Origin: a bacterium
GTDB lineage: Bacteria > UBA8248
Direction: 5' to 3'
DNA length: 64,000 nucleotides
NCBI GenBank assembly: GCA_965213625.1
Contig: CBDBZU010000004.1
Coordinates: 2,304,001-2,368,000, forward strand
The notes below the pieces were generated by a model. The model made no database searches. It was not told where the DNA came from and saw only the letters and a program-made list of their open reading frames with translations. Positions 19,418 to 33,023 of this stretch are shown one piece after another. A program made the translations under genes and the position numbers. Position 1 is the stretch's first letter; each line of letters starts with the position of its first letter.

Positions 19418-21673
19418 GTGGAAATGACAGACTATAAAGTCGCGGGCATGGGCCTTACACGAATCGATGCACCTGACAAAGTAGCTGGCAGTGCAAAATA
19501 TGCGGCTGACGTTCCATCGAGCCGTTCACTCATCGGTCTAGTCTTGGGTAGTCCGCATCCGTATGCGAAGGTACTGAGCGTAGATGCAAGTGAGGCGCGC
19601 AAGGTGCCTGGCGTCCGGGCAGTCGTGACGCGAGATGACGCCCCCCGCATTCGATTCGGCGCCAACATCAAAGATCAGAGTTGGTTTGCGCAGGATGGCT
19701 TTGTTCGATATGGCGGAGAACCTGTGGCTGCTGTGGCCGCCGAAGATATGGATGCCGCTCAAGCGGCAATTGAATCGATTCAGGTGGACTATGAAGTTTT
19801 AGAGCCAGTGGTAAACGGCTTGGACAGCCGGGCAGGCGAGGGTCTTGCCGTCCACGAAGATTGGCAAGATTTGGGGCTTGGCCCGAATGCAGACAAAAAC
19901 ATTATCGCCCGATTTGAAAAAGAAATTGGAAATGTCGACGCCGGATACAAAGACGCAGATCGCATTTTTGAGCACACATTTTCTACACCATTCGTACATG
20001 CCGGCTATATTGAGCCTCACGCTTGCGTTGCCGAGGCAGGTGCAGACGGAAAAGTCACAATCTGGACAACCACGCAGGATGCATGGTCCATCCGGGCGGA
20101 CGTGGCTGAGGCGCTTGGCCTCCCGGCAACTCATGTTCGAGTCATTCCTACTGAAATCGGCGGTGGGTTTGGCGCTAAGCTAAAGAGTACTTATGAGCAC
20201 CTAGCCGCTCTTTTGGCTTTGAAAACTGACCAGTCCGTGCGCATGGAGATGACGCGCGAAGAAGATCATATCGGGGTGAATCCGAGACACCCGCATTTCA
20301 TTACGATACGCACAGCGGTGAAGAATGACGGTACGTTTGTCGCTCGGGAGCTTGATGTCACGATGGATCATGGCGCCTATGGCCGAGGCGCACCGTTTCA
20401 ATGCAGTAGCAAGATGCTGATGGGTTCATGCTCGTATCGTATCCCCAACGTTAGGATTCGTGCTTGTACGGTATATACCAATGGCCCCGTTTGTGGTCCC
20501 GTGCGTGCTCCCAGCGGTCCCCAGTACCACTTTGCCACTGAAGTGCAGATGGACATCATCGCGCGCGAGATGGGGATTGACCCACTCGAGATAAGGAGAA
20601 TAAATTCCCTTCGGCCCGGAGATGAGACGCTGGCTGGGAAGGAGCCGGCTCCATCCATGCGTAGTGTGCTTGACTCAACAGCCGTGGAAGGCATGTGGGG
20701 AAAGAAAATTGAGGCTAACGGAGAGCTTGAGGGAGATGGCTGGAAGCTCGGCCGCGGCATTGCTTGCGGATATTGGCCCGGGCCCGGGGAGGCGTCTAGT
20801 TGCACGGTCCGCCTGAATCAAGACGGCACCGTACAAGTGGTAGCGGGAACGGTGAACCTTACGGGTATGAGCACTTCCATATGCCAACTTGCCGCAGAGG
20901 AATTGGGCGTTAGTTTGGATGAAGTGCGGTACACGAACGGAGATACGGATTCGGTTCCCGAATCATCGGCGGCGTCAGGCAGTAAGGCGACGCGCGCGGT
21001 TGGAATGGCAACTTTGAGTGCCGCCCGTGATTTGCGGAACAAAATCTTGAATGTGGCGAGTATAAAACTCGAAGCCGCTGCGGATGATCTGGTTTTGGAA
21101 GATGGACAAGTCAAAGTGGCTTCAGCGCCCGACCGAGCTATGTCTCTTGCACAGGTGGCCAAGGCGGCGCCTGAAATTCAGGGATTTTTAATCGGACAAG
21201 GTGAAAGCGCAAAGCCTCCCCCATGTCCGATACATACCGGACAGGTGGCGGATGTAGCCGTGAATCCGGAGCTTGGTGAGGTCAGGGTTTTGCGCCTTAC
21301 ATGCGTGCAGGACGTGGGATTTGCCATAAACCCATTGTCCGTGGTGGGACAAATTGAAGGCGCCATGCTCCAGGGACTCGGATTGGCCCTCATGGAAGAG
21401 CAGCCCAGGCGCCCGGATGGTAATTTGCACGGCGATACCTTCCATGAATATCTGATACCTACCAGCATGGATATGCCTGAATTGAATGCCGTTTTGTATG
21501 ATAACCCGGCCGAGGGTACGCCCTATGGGATGCGAGGCGTGGGTGAACCGCCCATTGTGGCGACTGCGGCGGCGATTGTGAATGCCATTCAAGACGCTGT
21601 TGGTACACCAGTTTTCTCATTACCTGTTGGCCCGCATCATATTCGAGAGGCTCTGGCTACGAACAGCGTATAA
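19418..21673 (+). CDS. Xanthine dehydrogenase/aldehyde oxidoreductase-family molybdopterin-binding subunit
   Basis: KVAGSAKYAAD, HAGYIEPH, IGGGFGAK, GQIEG, RGVGEPP. Confidence 0.92.
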   Translation: MEMTDYKVAGMGLTRIDAPDKVAGSAKYAADVPSSRSLIGLVLGSPHPYAKVLSVDASEARKVPGVRAVVTRDDAPRIRFGANIKDQSWFAQDGFVRYGGEPVAAVAAEDMDAAQAAIESIQVDYEVLEPVVNGLDSRAGEGLAVHEDWQDLGLGPNADKNIIARFEKEIGNVDAGYKDADRIFEHTFSTPFVHAGYIEPHACVAEAGADGKVTIWTTTQDAWSIRADVAEALGLPATHVRVIPTEIGGGFGAKLKSTYEHLAALLALKTDQSVRMEMTREEDHIGVNPRHPHFITIRTAVKNDGTFVARELDVTMDHGAYGRGAPFQCSSKMLMGSCSYRIPNVRIRACTVYTNGPVCGPVRAPSGPQYHFATEVQMDIIAREMGIDPLEIRRINSLRPGDETLAGKEPAPSMRSVLDSTAVEGMWGKKIEANGELEGDGWKLGRGIACGYWPGPGEASSCTVRLNQDGTVQVVAGTVNLTGMSTSICQLAAEELGVSLDEVRYTNGDTDSVPESSAASGSKATRAVGMATLSAARDLRNKILNVASIKLEAAADDLVLEDGQVKVASAPDRAMSLAQVAKAAPEIQGFLIGQGESAKPPPCPIHTGQVADVAVNPELGEVRVLRLTCVQDVGFAINPLSVVGQIEGAMLQGLGLALMEEQPRRPDGNLHGDTFHEYLIPTSMDMPELNAVLYDNPAEGTPYGMRGVGEPPIVATAAAIVNAIQDAVGTPVFSLPVGPHHIREALATNSV

Positions 21674-21704
21674 ATCACACCCGACACTTTTCAAGGAGAA
21701 TCCA

Positions 21705-22370
21705 ATGCCTGTGGACGAAGGAACAAGTTTGCCGGATAGTTTGGGCGTGACCGATGAGATGATGGCATGTCCTTTACCAAGGTTGCCTTTCGTCGATCCT
21801 GACAATGTTCCCGACGAACTCAAGGAAGAACTCGCTCCGCTCTACGATTGGTCGAAACGGATGTGGGGCACTGTCCCACGCTTTTTACAGCTTTTGGGAA
21901 ATTCACCCCCTACTGTGGAAGGATGGATGTTGCTCGACCAGAAGCTCCGTACGAATCGATTAAAAACGGAGTCCGATTACATTCGACTCATGGAACTGGT
22001 CATCGTCAAAACGGCCATTTTGACAGAGTGCAACAACTGAATCGGGCACAATGTGGAGCTCGGTCGAGCTCTGGGTCTTACGCAGGATCAAATCAACATG
22101 TTGGAAGGCGATGATTGGAATGAAAGTGATTTGTTCGATGACAAGGAGAAAGCCGTTATCCGTTGGGCGGATGAAGTATCGAAGTTCAGGGCGAAGAATA
22201 ATGACTTCGCATTCAATGAGATGAAAAAATATTTCTCCAATCGGCAGATCGTGGAACTCACTTTTATTTGTGGGATGTGGCATCTTTCGGGAAGACTGGC
22301 CGAGGCGCTCCACCTGGTTGTGGAACCACCGGGAGGGCGCATCGAATTTCAGGCAGAAGACATGGCGTAA
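21705..22370 (+). CDS. AhpD/carboxymuconolactone decarboxylase-like selenoprotein (CxxU), 221 aa with UGA read-through
   Basis: RBS AAGGAG before ATG 21705. In-frame TGA at 22038-22040 in ELVIVKTAILTE-C-N-N-U-IGH. The frame continues with a CMD-like C-terminus (EKAVIRWADEV, QIVELT). Hairpin follows the TGA. Confidence 0.85.
22056..22071 (+). promoter_or_regulatory. Putative bacterial SECIS hairpin
   Basis: GAGCTC-GGTC-GAGCTC; the G-starting loop is 21 nt after the TGA. Confidence 0.7.
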
Positions 22371-22605
22371 ACACAAGCTTCATCGCCAAATACATTTGTT
22401 GAGCGATCCTTGCGTTGTGTCGTTTTGGCTTAATGTACGCGTGCGCATACAAATCATGTCCAACATTTGCTCATCTGAAATTCATCTTTCCGGCTTCCAT
22501 TTTCGTTTTTTCGACTAACTATTTCATCCGCCCATGATATGAAACATGTTTTGAACAATGCATTTTTATCGGTTGAAAAATAAGGATATATACATAAAAA
22601 AAGAA

Positions 22606-22633
22606 TTGCTTTTTTTGAAGATTTTTGTATACT
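22606..22633 (+). promoter_or_regulatory. Putative sigma70 promoter
   Basis: TTGCTT-16nt-TATACT with an A-rich UP-like tract upstream. Confidence 0.55.
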
Positions 22634-22691
22634 CCCCCGCTTTGTGATGTCGCCTGAATCAAACCCAGGCTAATTCGTTTCGAGCCGCCCA

Positions 22692-22874
22692 ATGAATGAG
22701 GAAGAAATGCTCGAGTTCAATGAAAGTGTTGCTGTCTTGGATCAAGAGTTTTTCGCTGAGTCTGGCGATGTTTTGCCAACGGATGTGGACTATGATGTGT
22801 CTGATGACGGTGCAAGTGACGATTTCTCCTTTTTAAGTGACGGCGAAGGAGGCAATGCTCCTGCTGCTTATTAG
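22692..22874 (+). CDS. Small, very acidic peptide (60 aa, or 55 aa from ATG 22707)
   Basis: 18 D/E and no K/R/H in 60 aa; GAGG precedes ATG 22707; flanked by a promoter and a terminator. Confidence 0.55.
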   Translation: MNEEEMLEFNESVAVLDQEFFAESGDVLPTDVDYDVSDDGASDDFSFLSDGEGGNAPAAY

Positions 22875-22898
22875 CATCCAACAGGAGAAAATGATTCA

Positions 22899-22931
22899 GC
22901 GCCCGGTAGAGATTTCAGCCGGGCGTTTTTT
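22899..22931 (+). terminator. Rho-independent terminator
   Basis: GCGCCCGG...CCGGGCGT followed by a T-run. Confidence 0.75.
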
Positions 22932-22986
22932 GTCCTGAAATATCTGTAATATGGAATTTACTTCATAACTATTGGAAGAAATTGTG

Positions 22987-23832
22987 ATGGCGACAGACGA
23001 ACTGACGATTCATCATGAAGACTTGCGTGGCCGCATTCTCTCAGCGGATTCGATGACCTATTTTGACGAAAGGGTTGGAGAATGGGACGTTCTCATTGGA
23101 GGCTCTTACGCCGCACGCATGACGATGGCGTGGGCAATGCGCCTGGGTGCGAGGGCAATCATTGCCCATGCGGCAGGAGTAGGGAAGGATGATGCAGGGA
23201 TAAGCGGTCTCCGGTTGGCCCAGGAATATCATGTCCCTGCATTGGCATGTGAGACAATGTCCGCAAGACTCGCCGTTGGAGTATCCGTTTATGAAGGCGA
23301 AGTCGGCCATGCGAATCAAGTGGCCCAAAGTCTCGGTGTTGAAATCGGTCAATCCATTGCTGAAGCTTCGAAAATTTTGCTCGATGCCGATGTGGGCCGG
23401 GAAGTGATTGTGGAGGAAAGCCTGGATGATAGAATTTATGAGCTAGAGCATTTGCCTGATGGTAATATACGCGCTTCATGGGGAATTCCCGTCCTGCGTT
23501 CTATCCAGGAACCAAGGCCCCAAGATGTTTTTATCCAAGCCTCGCATTGCGGACTCACTCTCGTACCGCATGTCATGAAGCTTAATTTAAAGGGTGTTAT
23601 TGCCAATGATGCAGGACGGGGGAAAGATGACTCCGGCACCGCATCTTTCCCCTACCTGGCGCGGGAGGGGATTGCGGTGGCGGCGGTCGGAGCCATGAGC
23701 GCGCGCATAGGTGATGTGATGAGCACCTGGCAGGAAGGCGTTATTTCATGCATGAACGAAGTAGCCGAAAAGCGTGGAGTGCGAGGAGGCATGAAGACGC
23801 GAGAGGCTGCTCTCGTCATGCTAAATGGTTAG
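22987..23832 (+). CDS. Conserved hypothetical protein with two similar domains
   Basis: Internal duplication: HAAGVGKDDAGI..MSARLA..NQVAQSLGV vs NDAGRGKDDSGT..MSARIGD..NEVAEKRGV. Confidence 0.75.
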   Translation: MATDELTIHHEDLRGRILSADSMTYFDERVGEWDVLIGGSYAARMTMAWAMRLGARAIIAHAAGVGKDDAGISGLRLAQEYHVPALACETMSARLAVGVSVYEGEVGHANQVAQSLGVEIGQSIAEASKILLDADVGREVIVEESLDDRIYELEHLPDGNIRASWGIPVLRSIQEPRPQDVFIQASHCGLTLVPHVMKLNLKGVIANDAGRGKDDSGTASFPYLAREGIAVAAVGAMSARIGDVMSTWQEGVISCMNEVAEKRGVRGGMKTREAALVMLNG

Positions 23833-23852
23833 GGTTTTATTCGAAATTGTCC

Positions 23853-23928
23853 TGGTGGAGGTGAGGGGATTCGAACCCCTGACCTCGTGGGTGCGATCCA
23901 CGCGCTCTCCCATCTGAGCTACACCCCC
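23853..23928 (-). tRNA. tRNA-Ala (anticodon CGC)
   Basis: 76-nt cloverleaf GGGGGTGTAGCTCAGATGGGAGAGCG-CGTGG-ATCGCAC-CCACG-AGGTCAGGGGTTCGAATCCCCTCACCTCCACCA; G3:U70 pair; encoded CCA. Confidence 0.97.
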
Positions 23929-23941
23929 ACAAAGGAACTTG

Positions 23942-23970
23942 AAGGTAGGCGAAGGAGCTTCGGGTGTCAA
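23942..23970 (-). promoter_or_regulatory. Putative sigma70 promoter of tRNA-Ala
   Basis: Minus strand TTGACA-17nt-TACCTT just upstream of the tRNA. Confidence 0.7.
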
Positions 23971-23980
23971 GTGAAATAGG

Positions 23981-24375
23981 GAGAGCCGGTGAAGTGCTCC
24001 CCCTAGGAGACTTCACCGGCTCTCGACCTGCCGCAGAGTCCGCCCGTTTCCCCCGCAGCAGGGAATCATATTCGAATTAGTGGGAGCCAAGGACTCAACC
24101 ACCGAGGTGTATTGTCCCCGGCTCCCGATCCTGCTGCAGAGTCCGCCCGTTTCCCCCGCAGCAGGGAATCATATTCGAATTAGTGGGAGCCAAGGACTCA
24201 ACCACCGAGGTGTATTGTCCCCGGCTCCCGATCCTGCTGCAGAGTCCGCCCGTTTCCCCCGCAGCAAGAGAATCTATTAAAAATCCGTTTTGGTGAGAGT
24301 CGGGGGACAACCCTCCGAGGATTCTCCCCCGACTCTCGTCCCGTCGCAGAGTCCGCCCGTTTCCCCCACGACGGG
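23981..24375 (-). ncRNA. Tandem array of four two-hairpin structured units (candidate ncRNA array)
   Basis: Invariant core GCAGAGTCCGCCCGTTTCCCCC (+) at 24033, 24136, 24239 and 24346 (spacing 103/103/107). Flanking stems covary; G-U pairs favour the minus strand. Confidence 0.7.
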
Positions 24376-24384
24376 TAAATTAGT

Positions 24385-27300
24385 TCAAGAACATCCACTC
24401 GTCGCGCCACATGTCATACATTTGAGGCACGTGCCGTTTCGCACTAAAGTGAACAAACCACAATCGCTGCATGCTTCACCCTCATACCCTTTTGCCCGCG
24501 CTTCTTCGATACGTGAATCGAGGGTGGAACTTGCTTCTGTTAAGGGTGTCATCGAAGTTTGGGTGGATTCTTTTTCATAATTCAAACTTATACGGTCGCT
24601 GCGCGGTGCGCTCGCATCCGGTCCCGGGAATACGGTTTGAATTTCATCTTTTTCCTCAGTGTCGAATTCCGGGATCTCATCTTGGGGACGCCCAATGGTG
24701 TCACTTCTCAAATCCTCCGACACGACTTGCGCAAGGTCGTGGCGTCCGAGATATGAAACTGCCAGTTCACGGAAGATGTAATCGATGATGGATGTGCTCA
24801 TCTTGATGTGGGGGTTACCGGAGACCATTCCCCCGGGCTCGAAGCGTGTGAAGACGAAGGCATCCACGAATTCGTCCAACGGAACGCCGTGCTGGAGCCC
24901 CAGCGAAATCGCGATGGCGAAACAGTTCATGAGGCTTCTGAAGGCAGCGCCTTCTTTGTGCATATCTATGAAAATTTCGCCGATAGAGCCGTCCTCGTAC
25001 TCACCGGTTCTAAGATACACTTTGTGTCCACCGATAACGGCTTTTTGCGTGTATCCGCCACGGCGGGTAGGTAACTTGCGTCTTCTGGATTGGTAAATGA
25101 TCCGGCGCACAATCTGCTGAGCAACGTGCACGGGAGCACTTTGGGAAGCTGGTTCTTCTTCACCGATATCACTGAAGAGTTCCGCTTCACTTTGCGCGGA
25201 AAGTGGTTGGCTTAGTTTCGAGCCATCGCGGTAAATCGCAATTGCTTTGGTCATTCGCAGCCATGACTCATGGTAGATGTCCAAAATGTCTTGAATTGTT
25301 GATTCCGCAGGCATGTTGATGGTTTTGCTGATGGCGCCTGATATGAAAGGCTGCGCCGCCGCCATCATGCGAACGTGCGCCATCGGGCTGATGAAGCGCT
25401 TGCCTTCTCGCCCGCATTTGCTCGCGCAATCAAAAACGGCTAGATGCTCTTCTTTCAGGTGGGGGGCGCCCTCAAGCGTCATTTTCCCGCAAACATAATC
25501 ATTCGCTTCGCTGATTTGCTCTGGAGTGAAACCAATGGCTTCGAGCAAATTCAGGTTCCAGTCGGCTATTTGCGCTTCATTAAGATTCAATTGTTCACGA
25601 CAGAAGTCTTCACCAAGGGAGTATTTGTTAAATGCGAACTGGATTTCAAACGCCCCTTCAAGTGCGGCTTCCACCTTTTCGAGGGCTTTGCTGGTAAACC
25701 CTTTTGCATGTAGAGATTCTGGATTGATATGAGGCGCATTCGTGAGGGTGCCCCGCCCTCTGCAATAGGCGACGATTTCGCGGATTTCTTCATCGTCATA
25801 GCCCAGGTGCCGCAAGGCAAGAGGAACGGACTGGTTGATGATCTTGAAATAACCGCCTCCGGCCAGTTTTTTGAATTTCACCAATGCAAAATCTGGCTCG
25901 ATTCCCGTTGTGTCGCAATCCATTACCAGGCCAATAGTGCCTGTTGGCGCGATGACAGTGGCTTGCGCATTCCGGTAGCCGTTTCGATAGCCAATGGCCA
26001 ACGCGTCATCCCACGCTTCACGCGCCGCTTGGAGAAGATAATCGGGGCAGATTTCCCCAGCAATTCCTTTAGGCGCCTTCGAGAGCATTTCGTATTCTGT
26101 TTCAGGCACTGAATAAGCTGCGCGGCGATGGTTTCTCAATACCCGCAGCATATGTTCCTGGTTGTCCTGATACCTGACGAAAGCTCCCAGTTCTCCTGCC
26201 ATTTCGGCACTTGTAGCGTACGAGCAGCCCGTCATGATAGACGTGAGAGCGCCGCACCACGCTTCCGCTTCCGGAGAATCGTAAGGGATGCCGAGAACCA
26301 TGAGCGCAGTGCCGAGATTGGCGTATCCAATTCCCAAGGTACGATACTCAAATGAGCGTTTGGCTATTTCGGGGCTGGGGAATTGCGCCATGAGCACCGA
26401 AATTTCAAGGACAACCGTCAGCAGGCGAATCACATGGCGATAGTCTTCTATCTGGAAATGATTCTGTTCTGTATCCAGGAATTTCATGAGATTCATCGAC
26501 GCCAGATTGCATGCGGTGTCATCCAGGAACATGTATTCCGAGCAGGGATTAGAACCATTGATACGTCCATCAGTGGAGCACGTGTGCCAATCGTTGATGG
26601 TCGTGTCGAATTGAAGGCCAGGGTCTGCGCAACACCACGCCGCATATCCAATCTGATCCCAAAGTTCTTTCGAACTGACGGAGTCGGCGATTTCACCATC
26701 GGTGCGTCGAATCAAGTTCCAATCCGTATTTTTTTCGGTGGCATTCATGAAATCATCTGAAATACGTATCGAATTGTTCGAGTTTTGCCCGGACACCGAA
26801 GTGTAGGCCTCGCCTTCCCAATTCGTGTCGAATTCCTCGAACTCGATCTCGGTGATGCCTTGCTGCGCGAGTTGAAGGGTTCGATGAATGTAATTATCCG
26901 GAACACCGGCGAGCCTTGCGGCGCGTATTGCTTTGACGAGCGATGGGTTCTTGTCCGGCTGATGGAGGTTGCCGTTGAGGCCTAGGTTCTTTCCTTCCAG
27001 GCAAGCCGCGAGAATGGCGTTCATGTGCCGGCTGCACATCTTGCTGCCCGATACCAGGGCGGCCACTTTCTGTTCTTCATGCACCTTCCAGTTAATGAAT
27101 TCCTCGATGTCGGGATGATCGATGTTTAACGTGACCATTTTCGCCGCGCGTCGCGTCGTGCCGCCCGACTTGATGGCGCCCGCTGCGCGGTCCCCAATCT
27201 TAAGGAAACTCATCAGGCCGGAACTTCTTCCGCCACCCGAAAGCGACTCCCCTTCCGCCCTCAAGCTCGCGAAATTCGTACCGGTACCTGAGCCGTATTT

Positions 27301-27975
27301 GAAGATGCGCGCCTCGCGCGTCCATAAATCCATGATCCCGCCCTCGTTGACGAGATCATCTTTTACAGATTGGATGAAGCACGCGTGCGGCTGGGGACGT
27401 TCATAGGCGTTGGTGGAGCGGAGGATTTCTCCGGTTTCCGGGTCGCAATAGAAATGGCCCTGAGCGGGACGCGTAATGCCGTAAGCCCAGTGGAGGCCGG
27501 TATTGAACCACTGCGGCGAGTTGGGAGCCGCCATCTGGCTCGCAAGAATGTATAGAAGCTCATCATAGAACGCCTTGGCGTCCTCTTCCGAATGAAAATA
27601 GCCGTGCTTCCAGCCCCAATACGTCCAGCATCCCGCCAGGCGATGGAAAACGTCCCGTGCGTCTCGCTCGCTGCCGTATTTCTCGTCCTCTGGGAGGGAT
27701 TCGAGTTTTTCCGTGTCCGGCTCCGAACATTGCAGCCACTCGGGTACGCCTTCTTCGGGAATTTTTTTCAGATGGGTGGGGACGCCGGCTTTACGAAAAT
27801 ATTTTTGCGCCAGAATGTCGACGGCCACCTGAGACCAGTTCTCCGGCGCCATGATATCCTTCGCTTCGAAGACGACCGAGCCGTCCGGGTTGACGATGCG
27901 AGAGGTGCGCGGCGCGAAACCGACCTCGCCGTACGTGTCATCTCCGGCCCGGGTGAAACGCCTCGTAAACTCCAC
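24385..27975 (-). CDS. nrdJ: Class II (adenosylcobalamin-dependent) ribonucleotide reductase
   Basis: [39 protein letters not shown]-type C-domain and terminal CxxC..CxxC..GCS; RBS AAGGAG. Confidence 0.96.
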
Positions 27976-28012
27976 TCCCTGTCTCCTTCGTTCTGGGCGT
28001 CCCGCTGTGCCG

Positions 28013-28061
28013 GGGACATATTTAGTATGCCGAAATCAAACCGCAACACTAAATGTAGTAT
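28013..28061. promoter_or_regulatory. Tandem NrdR boxes upstream of nrdJ
   Basis: GGGACATATTTAGTAT (28013) and ACACTAAATGTAGTAT (28046) resemble the acaCwAtATaTwGtgt consensus, 33 bp apart; minus-strand TTGACA at 28076-28081. Confidence 0.75.
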
Positions 28062-28357
28062 GCTTTGTCCCCGTCTGTCAATACTTTAAAATCGGATATA
28101 CACAAAATATATGAACTTACCCACACCTTATCCCCAAATGTTGTGCTTTCATGTGGATAAGCGGCGCAAGGAGGATAATGAGGGCCGAAACACCGCCCCG
28201 ATCCGCACCTGCAGCCTCGTTATCCGGGGCGGCGGCGCGCCCGAAGGGGTGCGCGGGAGCACCCGAATCACGGTAACGTGGCCGACATTCAGGGGTGTCT
28301 CCATCGCGAAAAATCACCCGCAAACATGCCCCGGATGTGCCCGGAAAAACACAGGAA

Positions 28358-28396
28358 ATTTATCGAATAACCCCGTGAATTTATCTATATTTATCG
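28358..28396. repeat. Second (inverted) copy of the 39-bp element at 10723-10761
   Basis: ATTTATCGAATAACCCCGTGAATTTATCTATATTTATCG. Confidence 0.75.
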
Positions 28397-28639
28397 TATT
28401 TTTCAGAATTGATTGGCTCTGGTTCGCCGTCCCGATTCCGCGCTGATGACTCCACACTCCCGGATATTCTGATTGCGCGAAAAGAGATTCTTCAAACGAG
28501 CCGACCTCCCTGTCGCGCGACCCGCGGTTTCAAGAGCGAAGACAGCGCGTCGAGCAGGGGTATGGTGCACCACCGCAGAATCCGCACTTGCGGGGAAATG
28601 CGCGCTTCCCGGCTGAGGCGGGTCTCATCGGCTCGCTCA

Positions 28640-28713
28640 ACGAAGGGCAGCCTGCGCTCATCCACCGCGCGCATCGACAGTCGGCGAATCACGTCGCAGA
28701 CGGAGTGGCCCAT
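28640..28713 (-). pseudogene. Degenerate fragment of a dinJ/relB antitoxin gene
   Basis: MGHSVCDVIRRLSMRAVDERRLPFV aligns with MGLSVSDAIRLLMMRVAEERRLPFV of the antitoxin at 36125-36382; the DNA is also similar. Confidence 0.7.
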
Positions 28714-28719
28714 GCCCCC

Positions 28720-32184
<3,465 letters not shown>

Positions 32185-32424
32185 AACGCTCCCTTGGCTA
32201 TCTTGCGGAACTCTCGTCCGCCTGTGTTAGAGGTTATGTCGTCGATGCGTCTCATCATTCATCATATGGGCGCGGGCGCCCCAGATTCCAATGCCGGTCT
32301 GCGTCGGTTCTTCCCGTCAATTTCGAGGAATCTGCAGATAACGAATTTTCGCATGTTGCCGCGTAATCGGCCAGAGCAATCGGCGCGATCCACACGGGAG
32401 GACTTTCATAGGAGAGCGGCTTGC

Positions 32425-32790
32425 TCAGTCCTGCTCCAGGAGGACGGCCAGCTTTTCGAGCACCTCGCCCACCACGCGCGGTGGCGCCTTGGATGCCAAG
32501 CGAGCCTTTCGTGCCCGCCAGTCGAGGCTTTTCACCTGATCGGCGAGCACCACCCCCGATACGGGGCCATCGGGTGGGAGCGTCACCTCGAATGGATAGC
32601 CCTTGACTCTGGAGGTGATGGGGCACAAGAGCGCCAGGCTGCTTTTCTCGTTGTAGCTTCGGGGGCTGACGACCAGCGCGGGGCGGCGGCCCGCCTGCTC
32701 ATGCCCCGCCTGGGGGGTGAAGGAGAGCCAGACGACCTCGCCCCTGCCCGGAACGTAGTCCGCGCCGGAAGCTACCCGCCTCGCTACCAT
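32425..32790 (-). CDS. mazF: MazF/PemK endoribonuclease toxin
   Basis: YVPGRGEVVW..F.PQAGHEQAGRRPALVVSP..YN, DQVKSLDWRAR. Confidence 0.93.
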   Translation of the reverse strand: MVARRVASGADYVPGRGEVVWLSFTPQAGHEQAGRRPALVVSPRSYNEKSSLALLCPITSRVKGYPFEVTLPPDGPVSGVVLADQVKSLDWRARKARLASKAPPRVVGEVLEKLAVLLEQD

Positions 32791-33023
32791 GCCTCGGCGC
32801 CCTGCGCGGGTCCGGCATCTTGCTCGGTGTGTAGGTTATCGGGACTGATCTCGGATAGCATGTCAGCCAGCCGGTAGCCTCTTTTGCGCATCACCACCCG
32901 GTCGCCGCGCGCGCTCATCTCGATGGCCGAACCCTCCCGGACGCCCCATTGCTCGGCGACGGGCTTCGGGATGCGGACGGCCAGGCTGTCTCCCCACTTT
33001 GCGATGTGCGATTTCGCACCCAT
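32784..33023 (-). CDS. mazE: MazE (AbrB-fold) antitoxin
   Basis: KWGDSLAVRIPK, ISPDNLH.E, GAEAW; overlaps mazF. Confidence 0.9.
   Translation of the reverse strand: MGAKSHIAKWGDSLAVRIPKPVAEQWGVREGSAIEMSARGDRVVMRKRGYRLADMLSEISPDNLHTEQDAGPAQGAEAW

Follow-up and report, generated by a model that had tools for sequence, protein, structure and literature searches.

Tandem two-hairpin RNA units behind nrdJ and a separately encoded hairpin RNA with a complementary bulge: a candidate two-RNA docking system in one bacterial family

The general background to the locus described here includes the iron-responsive elements of the transferrin-receptor 3' untranslated region (UTR), which are eukaryotic, protein-bound hairpins that occur several to a message and may set mRNA stability, and sponges of the SroC-GcvB and 3'ETS-leuZ type, which are Hfq-dependent. 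The CcsR1-4 ("cuckoo") RNAs of Rhodobacter sphaeroides are tandem two-hairpin units in a 3' UTR with AU-rich linkers between them, and, in the available text of PMC8034643, they carry a C-rich anti-Shine-Dalgarno motif in the loops of both hairpins and lie adjacent to a DUF1127 gene. The available text of PMC8383071 presents SroC-GcvB and 3'ETS-leuZ as cases in which a 3' UTR-derived RNA pairs with a separately encoded sRNA, and RNAIII-rot/coa and OxyS-fhlA as kissing complexes in which a C-rich sRNA segment lies on a G-rich loop of the mRNA. Examples of the branched kissing loop (bKL) in the accessible part of PMC8457670 include phi29 pRNA assembly and the T-box-tRNA complex.

The window analyzed here (a stretch of 64,000 nucleotides) contains, on the minus strand, the gene nrdJ (24385..27975), assigned by NCBIfam and PF02867 to a class II (vitamin B12-dependent) ribonucleotide reductase of 1196 amino acids, and directly downstream of it an array of four RNA units. 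An earlier note on this DNA had identified the upstream gene as a B12-dependent reductase, which is borne out by a score of 1994.5 bits for NF005736 against a cut-off of 1737; its account of four minus-strand units at spacings of 107, 103, and 103 nt, starting 9 nt past the nrdJ stop, was also correct, the stem of unit 1 beginning at 24375 and the stop codon ending at 24385. Unit 1 (24295..24375, minus strand) has a first hairpin with a 12-bp stem, P1 (24375-24340), and a loop, L1 (24363-24352), within which lies a 7-nt pairing core (24359-24353), and a second hairpin, P2 (24337-24295), with a UNGGN pentaloop and the sequence ACCAAAA after it. Units 2 (24185..24268), 3 (24082..24165), and 4 (23981..24062) follow on the same strand, with L1 at 24256-24245, 24153-24142, and 24050-24039, respectively, and with P2 of unit 4 at 24024-23981. 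What had been described as an invariant core of hairpin 1 is more exactly the top 4 bp of the stem together with a 12-nt loop, NNNA-CGGGCGG-A, and the apex of hairpin 2 is not the reported CCUNGG but a UNGGN pentaloop closed by CC/GG pairs. The fold energies of the units are −53.5 to −58.7 kcal/mol (z −5.9 to −6.8), none of 200 shuffles being equally stable, and the minus-strand fold is better than that of the plus strand by 9.8 to 20 kcal/mol.

A U-rich tail past the last hairpin (23971..23980, minus strand) is likely to be the 3' end of the nrdJ transcript; a formal terminator scan gave none at these positions. Next to it is a promoter-like site for a tRNA gene (23942..23970, minus strand), read from the sequence as TTGACA, 17 nt, and TACCTT; sites resembling it are seen in relatives too, and a consensus promoter scan made no call there. 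The tRNA, tRNA-Ala(CGC) (23853..23928, minus strand), had been overlooked in the earlier note and is a neighbor that lies outside the system. The DNA past the tRNA differs among relatives, as at an integration site, and in the window it includes a low-GC stretch (21582-23832) with a weak impB/mucB-like fragment that scores below cut-off. Small open reading frames of about 85 amino acids, mutually related as judged by eye, lie just before or after the array at four loci of one genus (L024, L025, L125, and L136). In the tRNA set that ARAGORN calls in the source genome, tRNA-Arg(ACG) and tRNA-Arg(TCG) are both present, together with tRNA-Sec.

The two middle units had been described as nearly identical through a recent duplication; units 2 and 3 are indeed 99% identical over 103 nt, but the duplicated copy itself is doubtful. 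Contigs from three public sequencing runs, all of one study, cross the locus with a 103-nt skip that corresponds to three units, none of them has four, and the arrays in the other genomes of the source genus have at most three units each. The fourth unit in the source genome may therefore be a strain variant or an assembly artifact, or it may have collapsed in the contigs.

nrdJ is the sole PF02867 gene in the source genome. One ribonucleotide reductase large-subunit gene was found in each of five genomes tested, and no class I small subunit in 51 genomes, so that, as judged from sequence searches covering classes I and II, NrdJ is the only reductase of these classes found in the family. Upstream of the gene is a promoter-like site (28013..28081, minus strand) with TTGACA at 28081 and two 16-mers 33 nt apart, which, as judged by eye, resemble NrdR boxes; an nrdR gene is present in five of five genomes tested. 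The GC3 of nrdJ drops along the gene (24385-27975) from 0.70 to 0.44, that of the upstream pyruvate carboxylase gene being 0.86. A similar slope is seen in some close relatives, but it is flat in high-GC ones that keep the array, and the fall is therefore unrelated to the array. A MazE/MazF-like toxin-antitoxin pair lies upstream of the pyruvate carboxylase gene (window 32255-33023).

A covariance model built from 49 units detects the array in 36 of the 41 family relatives, at a single locus per genome and with one to four units, in none of 79 genomes outside the family, and at no credible score among nine further genomes of the phylum. The five relatives that lack it are drafts: in two the contig breaks off at the first unit or within it, and in the other three no C terminus of nrdJ was found. 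The stem covariation that had been claimed from the four copies holds across the family, 22 of 28 pairs being altered on both sides, a level reached in none of 500 shuffles, and 97.9% of the stem cells are paired as compared with 47-53% in slid controls. The suggestion that this is no known family also stands, the best non-tRNA match to Rfam in positions 20000-30000 of the window being 20.8 bits against a threshold of 80. These results support an undescribed, covarying RNA family that is tied to nrdJ.

Among 83 different units belonging to 39 different nrdJ-linked arrays (6, 13, 15, and 5 arrays with one, two, three, and four units, respectively), the loop positions CGGGCGGA are constant in all 83, in a survey that tolerated one substitution and that more divergent loops would escape, and at position −1, just before the core, 81 units have A and the other 2 have U. 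The first stem begins 6-27 nt past the nrdJ stop in 31 of the 39 arrays. A run of at least four U in the next 10 nt is found after 22 of 27 last units but after only 1 of 30 first units. The linker word GAUUC, seen in the four copies, is not a constant of the family; the enriched word is RNWUU, which occurs in 47 of 82 units as compared with a shuffle mean of 24.6 and a maximum of 40, the related genomes being non-independent, and which is presumably of the RNase E type. A separate feature is that hairpin 2 ends in ACCA in 20 of 30 first units and 1 of 27 last units (24295-24290 in the window); this end resembles a tRNA acceptor end and could be an RNase P-type site.

The association with nrdJ extends to records outside the genome set. 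A unit lies behind a 74% identical NrdJ in a record named "uncultured Nitrospinaceae bacterium" (L158), but none lies behind the more distant nrdJ of seven genomes of the same class or near 56 viral nrdJ loci that were examined. In a pattern scan of species genomes, 2 of 118 loci among the matches listed are true units, both of them behind nrdJ; in a metagenome scan 17 of 74 loci are true units, two of these being one contig, and nrdJ is upstream in 16 of the 17, the remaining one having no upstream DNA. Three viral pattern scans gave 0, 7, and 0 matches, and none of the 7 has a stem of at least 10 pairs. In the 4.15-Mb source genome the array core occurs four times only, even with up to two mismatches allowed, and the covariance-model search gives the same result.

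These data bear on the reading that the units have no specific partner, being plain hairpins for stabilization or termination or else a selfish repeat. The stems are very stable, the last units carry the U-rich tail, and copy number shifts through duplication, all of which such elements might display. However, the question posed in the earlier note, whether the units lie behind nrdJ or are dispersed, is answered by one nrdJ-linked locus per genome, which excludes a REP or MITE element; searches of 72,556 plasmid and 50,697 phage records gave no match; and a constant G+C-rich loop is retained even in low-GC genomes. The reading is consequently considered very improbable.

The array resembles the CcsR RNAs in consisting of tandem two-hairpin units with AU-rich linkers in the 3' UTR of one gene, and this precedent (PMC8034643, in its available text), together with the presence of RNase E/G, gives some substance to the idea that RNase E frees the units to act as independent CcsR-like sRNAs on G-complementary mRNAs, with no special partner. 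In comparison with the CcsR RNAs as described in that text, however, the loop is G-rich (83 of 83 units) and present in one hairpin only, the neighbors are nrdJ and tRNA-Ala with no DUF1127 gene as in the CIN1 subgroup, and a separate complementary RNA exists. At 21 loci no conserved complement was found when the nrdJ coding region and the 400 nt preceding it were searched, and in G026, 11 of the 16 CCGCCCG sites on both strands lie within long open frames; the other five are in the array, the partner RNA described below, a third RNA also described below, and two tRNA stems. This idea is thus regarded as improbable. A processed sRNA of the Hfq type is unlikely, since Hfq was found in none of five genomes (control, 5 of 14 reference genomes). 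Pairing of the loop with a site in cis, within nrdJ itself or on its 5' side, was also rejected, the best 7-mer site being common to only 2 of 21 loci.

The best lead now lies outside the three options of the earlier note (a protein sponge, a processed sRNA, or a sensor): it is a partner RNA whose sequence complements the invariant loop. A second undescribed hairpin RNA, new here, is predicted from its sequence to present a bulge, CCGCCCGA, that complements the core CGGGCGG. In the source genome (G000) this partner ends in a 58-nt hairpin on the plus strand at G000:C4:3048541-3048598, outside the window and 720 kb from nrdJ, with its 8-nt bulge at G000:C4:3048551-3048558 (plus strand) and a sigma70-type promoter-like site with an extended −10 at G000:C4:3048447-3048476. 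It was sought in four low-GC relatives, chosen because G+C-rich words are rare there. When 47 complementary sites in these genomes were compared, the sole cluster common to all four was the partner, whose G+C-rich hairpin lies within an A+T-rich spacer, leaves the complement unpaired in a bulge, and has a promoter-like site upstream; the sites of the array itself clustered in three of the four genomes, that of the fourth being outside the comparison. In one set of sites 30 of 54 loci were examined and in the other 35 of 36, the remaining one being the array unit of G032 itself.

A structural scan of the source genome ranked the partner homologue first, and only 1 of 513 TCCGCCCG sites in that genome, the partner, is unpaired within a stable fold. 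A two-strand scan that was blind to sequence yielded 39 bulged hairpins, the partner being the most stable of them (−45.2 as compared with −37.1 kcal/mol for the next). By our own arithmetic the chance of the exact 7-mer is about 1.5% in any of the 39 hairpins and about 0.04% in the top one, but it should be noted that the geometry filters were shaped after the low-GC homologues had been seen, so that the scan is not fully independent.

With a model built from two genera, the partner is found in 39 of the 41 relatives, from eight genera, at E values of 2e-6 or better, and in none of 79 other genomes; it has no match near any Rfam family threshold. It is not 6S RNA, because a normal 6S RNA sits elsewhere in five of five genomes. 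The partner is single copy except in G004, where there are two copies with different bulges (L479 and L509) in an assembly with 9% contamination, probably reflecting a mixture of strains. The stems comprise 543 Watson-Crick, 68 G-U, and 1 A-C cells, and the CCGCCCG strand is therefore the folded one; 6 of 15 modeled pairs are altered on both sides, as compared with none of 500 shuffles. The apical loop is free to vary, and the bulge is the sole conserved unpaired part, being CCGCCCGA in 32 of 41 copies, UCGCCCGA in 7, UCGCCCGG in 1, and CCGACCGA in 1.

A promoter scan near the partner found two sites, one per strand, where 0.4 would be expected, and one of these is aimed at the partner. A similar promoter-like site, by a hand-fitted pattern, lies 28-74 nt upstream of all 41 copies, a distance from which an RNA of about 90-130 nt is estimated. 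On one side the partner is flanked by a divergent PEP-hydrolase-like or dehydrogenase gene and on the other by a convergent gene (NYN, BatA-like, or antiporter-like) that varies with genus, and the partner thus behaves as a gene of its own. In the source genome the tmRNA is followed directly by an NYN-domain gene (G000:C4:106435-107636), whose homologue abuts the partner in most other genera; a linkage of the partner with tmRNA was rejected, there being no tRNA or tmRNA at 16 partner loci. The partner leader contains a short inverted repeat (L447:3985-4005), kept in most genomes of the genus, which is possibly an operator or a small leader hairpin.

The loop L1 and the partner bulge are both predicted to be open, and the seven loop-bulge pairs are possible in 35 of the 36 genomes that have both RNAs, a conserved complementarity of two predicted-accessible segments; this count was reached after spurious pattern matches in G062, G064, and G065 had been removed by eye, the scripted count being 32 of 36. 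In the exception, G029, the bulge CCGACCGA mismatches centrally against all three loops of the genome. All eight changes at the first position of the bulge are C to U, so that a G-U pair is preserved, and the only two changes at position −1 of the loop are A to U, each adding a pair to the last A of the bulge. No two-sided compensatory change was seen, as the loop never varies; the variation consists of a one-sided wobble in 8 of 41 copies and one mismatch. It should also be recognized that the match is short (7 bp) and G+C-rich, and that the co-distribution of array and partner is weak evidence, since both are simply restricted to the family. Nothing in the pairing accounts for the second hairpin with its UNGGN loop, or for the G-U pairs below L1 that never vary.

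The loop is also complementary to 16S rRNA over 8 nt, and this suggests another role, in which L1 would pair with a conserved stretch of the decoding region when 30S subunits are free or still immature, and the partner, its bulge repeating 7 nt of that stretch, would be a neutralizing decoy; if so, dNTP synthesis would be coupled to ribosome availability through an RNA-only switch on the ribosome. The 16S rRNA of the source genome contains CCGCCCGU once, complementing loop positions −1 to +6, the first of which is the nearly constant A (81 of 83 units), the predicted duplex energies are equal (−17.5 for 16S as against −17.2 for the partner), and when the 8-mer is permuted, just 4 of 168 versions find a complement in this 16S rRNA. 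However, with the whole rRNA operon as the target 15 of the 168 do so, and the 16S complementarity was noticed post hoc. Both of the −1 changes forfeit a pair with 16S rRNA while gaining one with the partner. The complementary stretch lies paired in helix 44 of mature subunits, which counts against such a contact. Also, RsmI is present in five of five genomes, so that no methylation guide is needed. A role of this kind is thus given a very small chance.

In a different explanation, the units are cis docking sites for a protein or metabolite in the nrdJ 3' UTR, in the manner of iron-responsive elements, and the RNA complementarity is a coincidence. The G-C/G-U/G-C pairs below L1 and the last A of L1, all of them invariant, have the look of a recognition surface together with the UNGGN loop, which is conserved, and a bulge mismatch is tolerated in one genome. 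The L1 loop is also repeated in a third, unrelated structured RNA that lies upstream of hflC-hflK-like genes. On the other hand, a family-wide RNA whose sole conserved open segment is the exact complement of the loop would stay unexplained, no candidate protein co-travels with the array, 34 of 41 relatives gave no CsrA, and Hfq was not found in the five genomes searched. The locus is like the iron-responsive elements in having several 3' UTR hairpins, but the analysis gave no candidate protein and an RNA as the best partner. This explanation is considered rather unlikely.

A sponge of the CsrA type (CsrB/RsmY) was rejected on similar grounds, CsrA being present in 7 of 41 relatives and not found in the source genome, and to that extent the protein-sponge option of the earlier note fails. 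A T-box-like sensor of tRNA-Ala(CGC), suggested by the GCG codon in the loop, was rejected because the tRNA arm pattern is found in none of four low-GC genomes that keep the unit, and SECIS or stop-codon recoding because the nrdJ frame is open and the stop varies among TGA, TAA, and TAG in the relatives.

The third RNA is a multibranch RNA of about 150 nt with a hairpin whose loop, AACGGGCGG, has the same core as L1; it is found in three low-GC relatives (L524:1440-1640, L529, and L384) with a promoter-like site of its own; it has no Rfam match and no BLAST homologue beyond these three genomes. The partner may have this RNA as a further target, so that the loop-bulge pairing may not be one-to-one, or else the shared loop may point to a motif bound by a protein. 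In the source genome (L555; G000:C4 about 680650-680900) a hairpin-rich leader with no Rfam match has GGGCGG in one hairpin loop, and the gene downstream of it encodes a protein 29% identical to the HflC-like protein next to the third RNA.

The reading favored here, on grounds of sequence and predicted structure and with a probability of about 55%, is a dedicated two-RNA docking system in which the loop and the bulge form a kissing pair that would tune turnover of the nrdJ mRNA, titrate the partner, or scaffold a protein. Transcription of nrdJ would pass through the array and stop at the U-rich tail, and each L1 loop would then dock one partner RNA through a 7-bp loop-bulge kissing helix with no need for Hfq, the valency being set by the one to four unit copies. 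Docking could alter cleavage by RNase E/G in the AU-rich linkers or later attack by RNase III or exonucleases, and the level of NrdJ would be set by the ratio of partner to message; RNase E/G is present in five of five genomes and RNase III also in five genomes tested. Such an altered turnover is probably the most likely effect, taking about half of the probability given to the docking system. Release into monomers appears plausible given the AU-rich linkers and RNase E/G, and the next-ranked effect is that released units would act as a sponge drawing the partner away from other targets; a unit-partner pair that serves as a structural scaffold for a protein is ranked least likely.

The proposed docking system shares features with each of the pairing systems described previously. 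As in SroC-GcvB and 3'ETS-leuZ, a 3' UTR RNA is complementary to a separately encoded sRNA, but those pairs have single sites within enterobacterial Hfq networks, whereas here there are one to four identical loops, a predicted loop-bulge contact that is pre-folded, and no Hfq found in five genomes. The short G+C-rich contact and the presence of RNase III are in common with the RNAIII and OxyS kissing pairs as presented in the available text of PMC8383071. Those mostly block a ribosome-binding site, however, whereas the repeated G-rich loops here lie past the stop codon, and the partner offers a one-sided bulge for the predicted contact. A pairing core that is flanked by A and meets a one-sided bulge fits the bKL definition given in the accessible part of PMC8457670, the contact being a predicted one in the present case, but none of the 14 natural examples there is a bacterial sRNA docked on an array in an mRNA 3' UTR.

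No description of this riboregulatory layout was found in the full-text literature searched, which covers few subscription journals. The term nrdJ does not occur in the main text of PMC5737381, a search that a motif given only in its supplements and not in Rfam could escape. The finding concerns one bacterial family, and its function is inferred. If the pairing holds, these bacteria would have a repeated landing pad past the stop codon of an essential gene together with a dedicated, pre-folded partner RNA, which would represent a natural intermolecular branched kissing loop and would add an RNA layer to the control of dNTP synthesis in a lineage in which the search for Hfq found none in five genomes.
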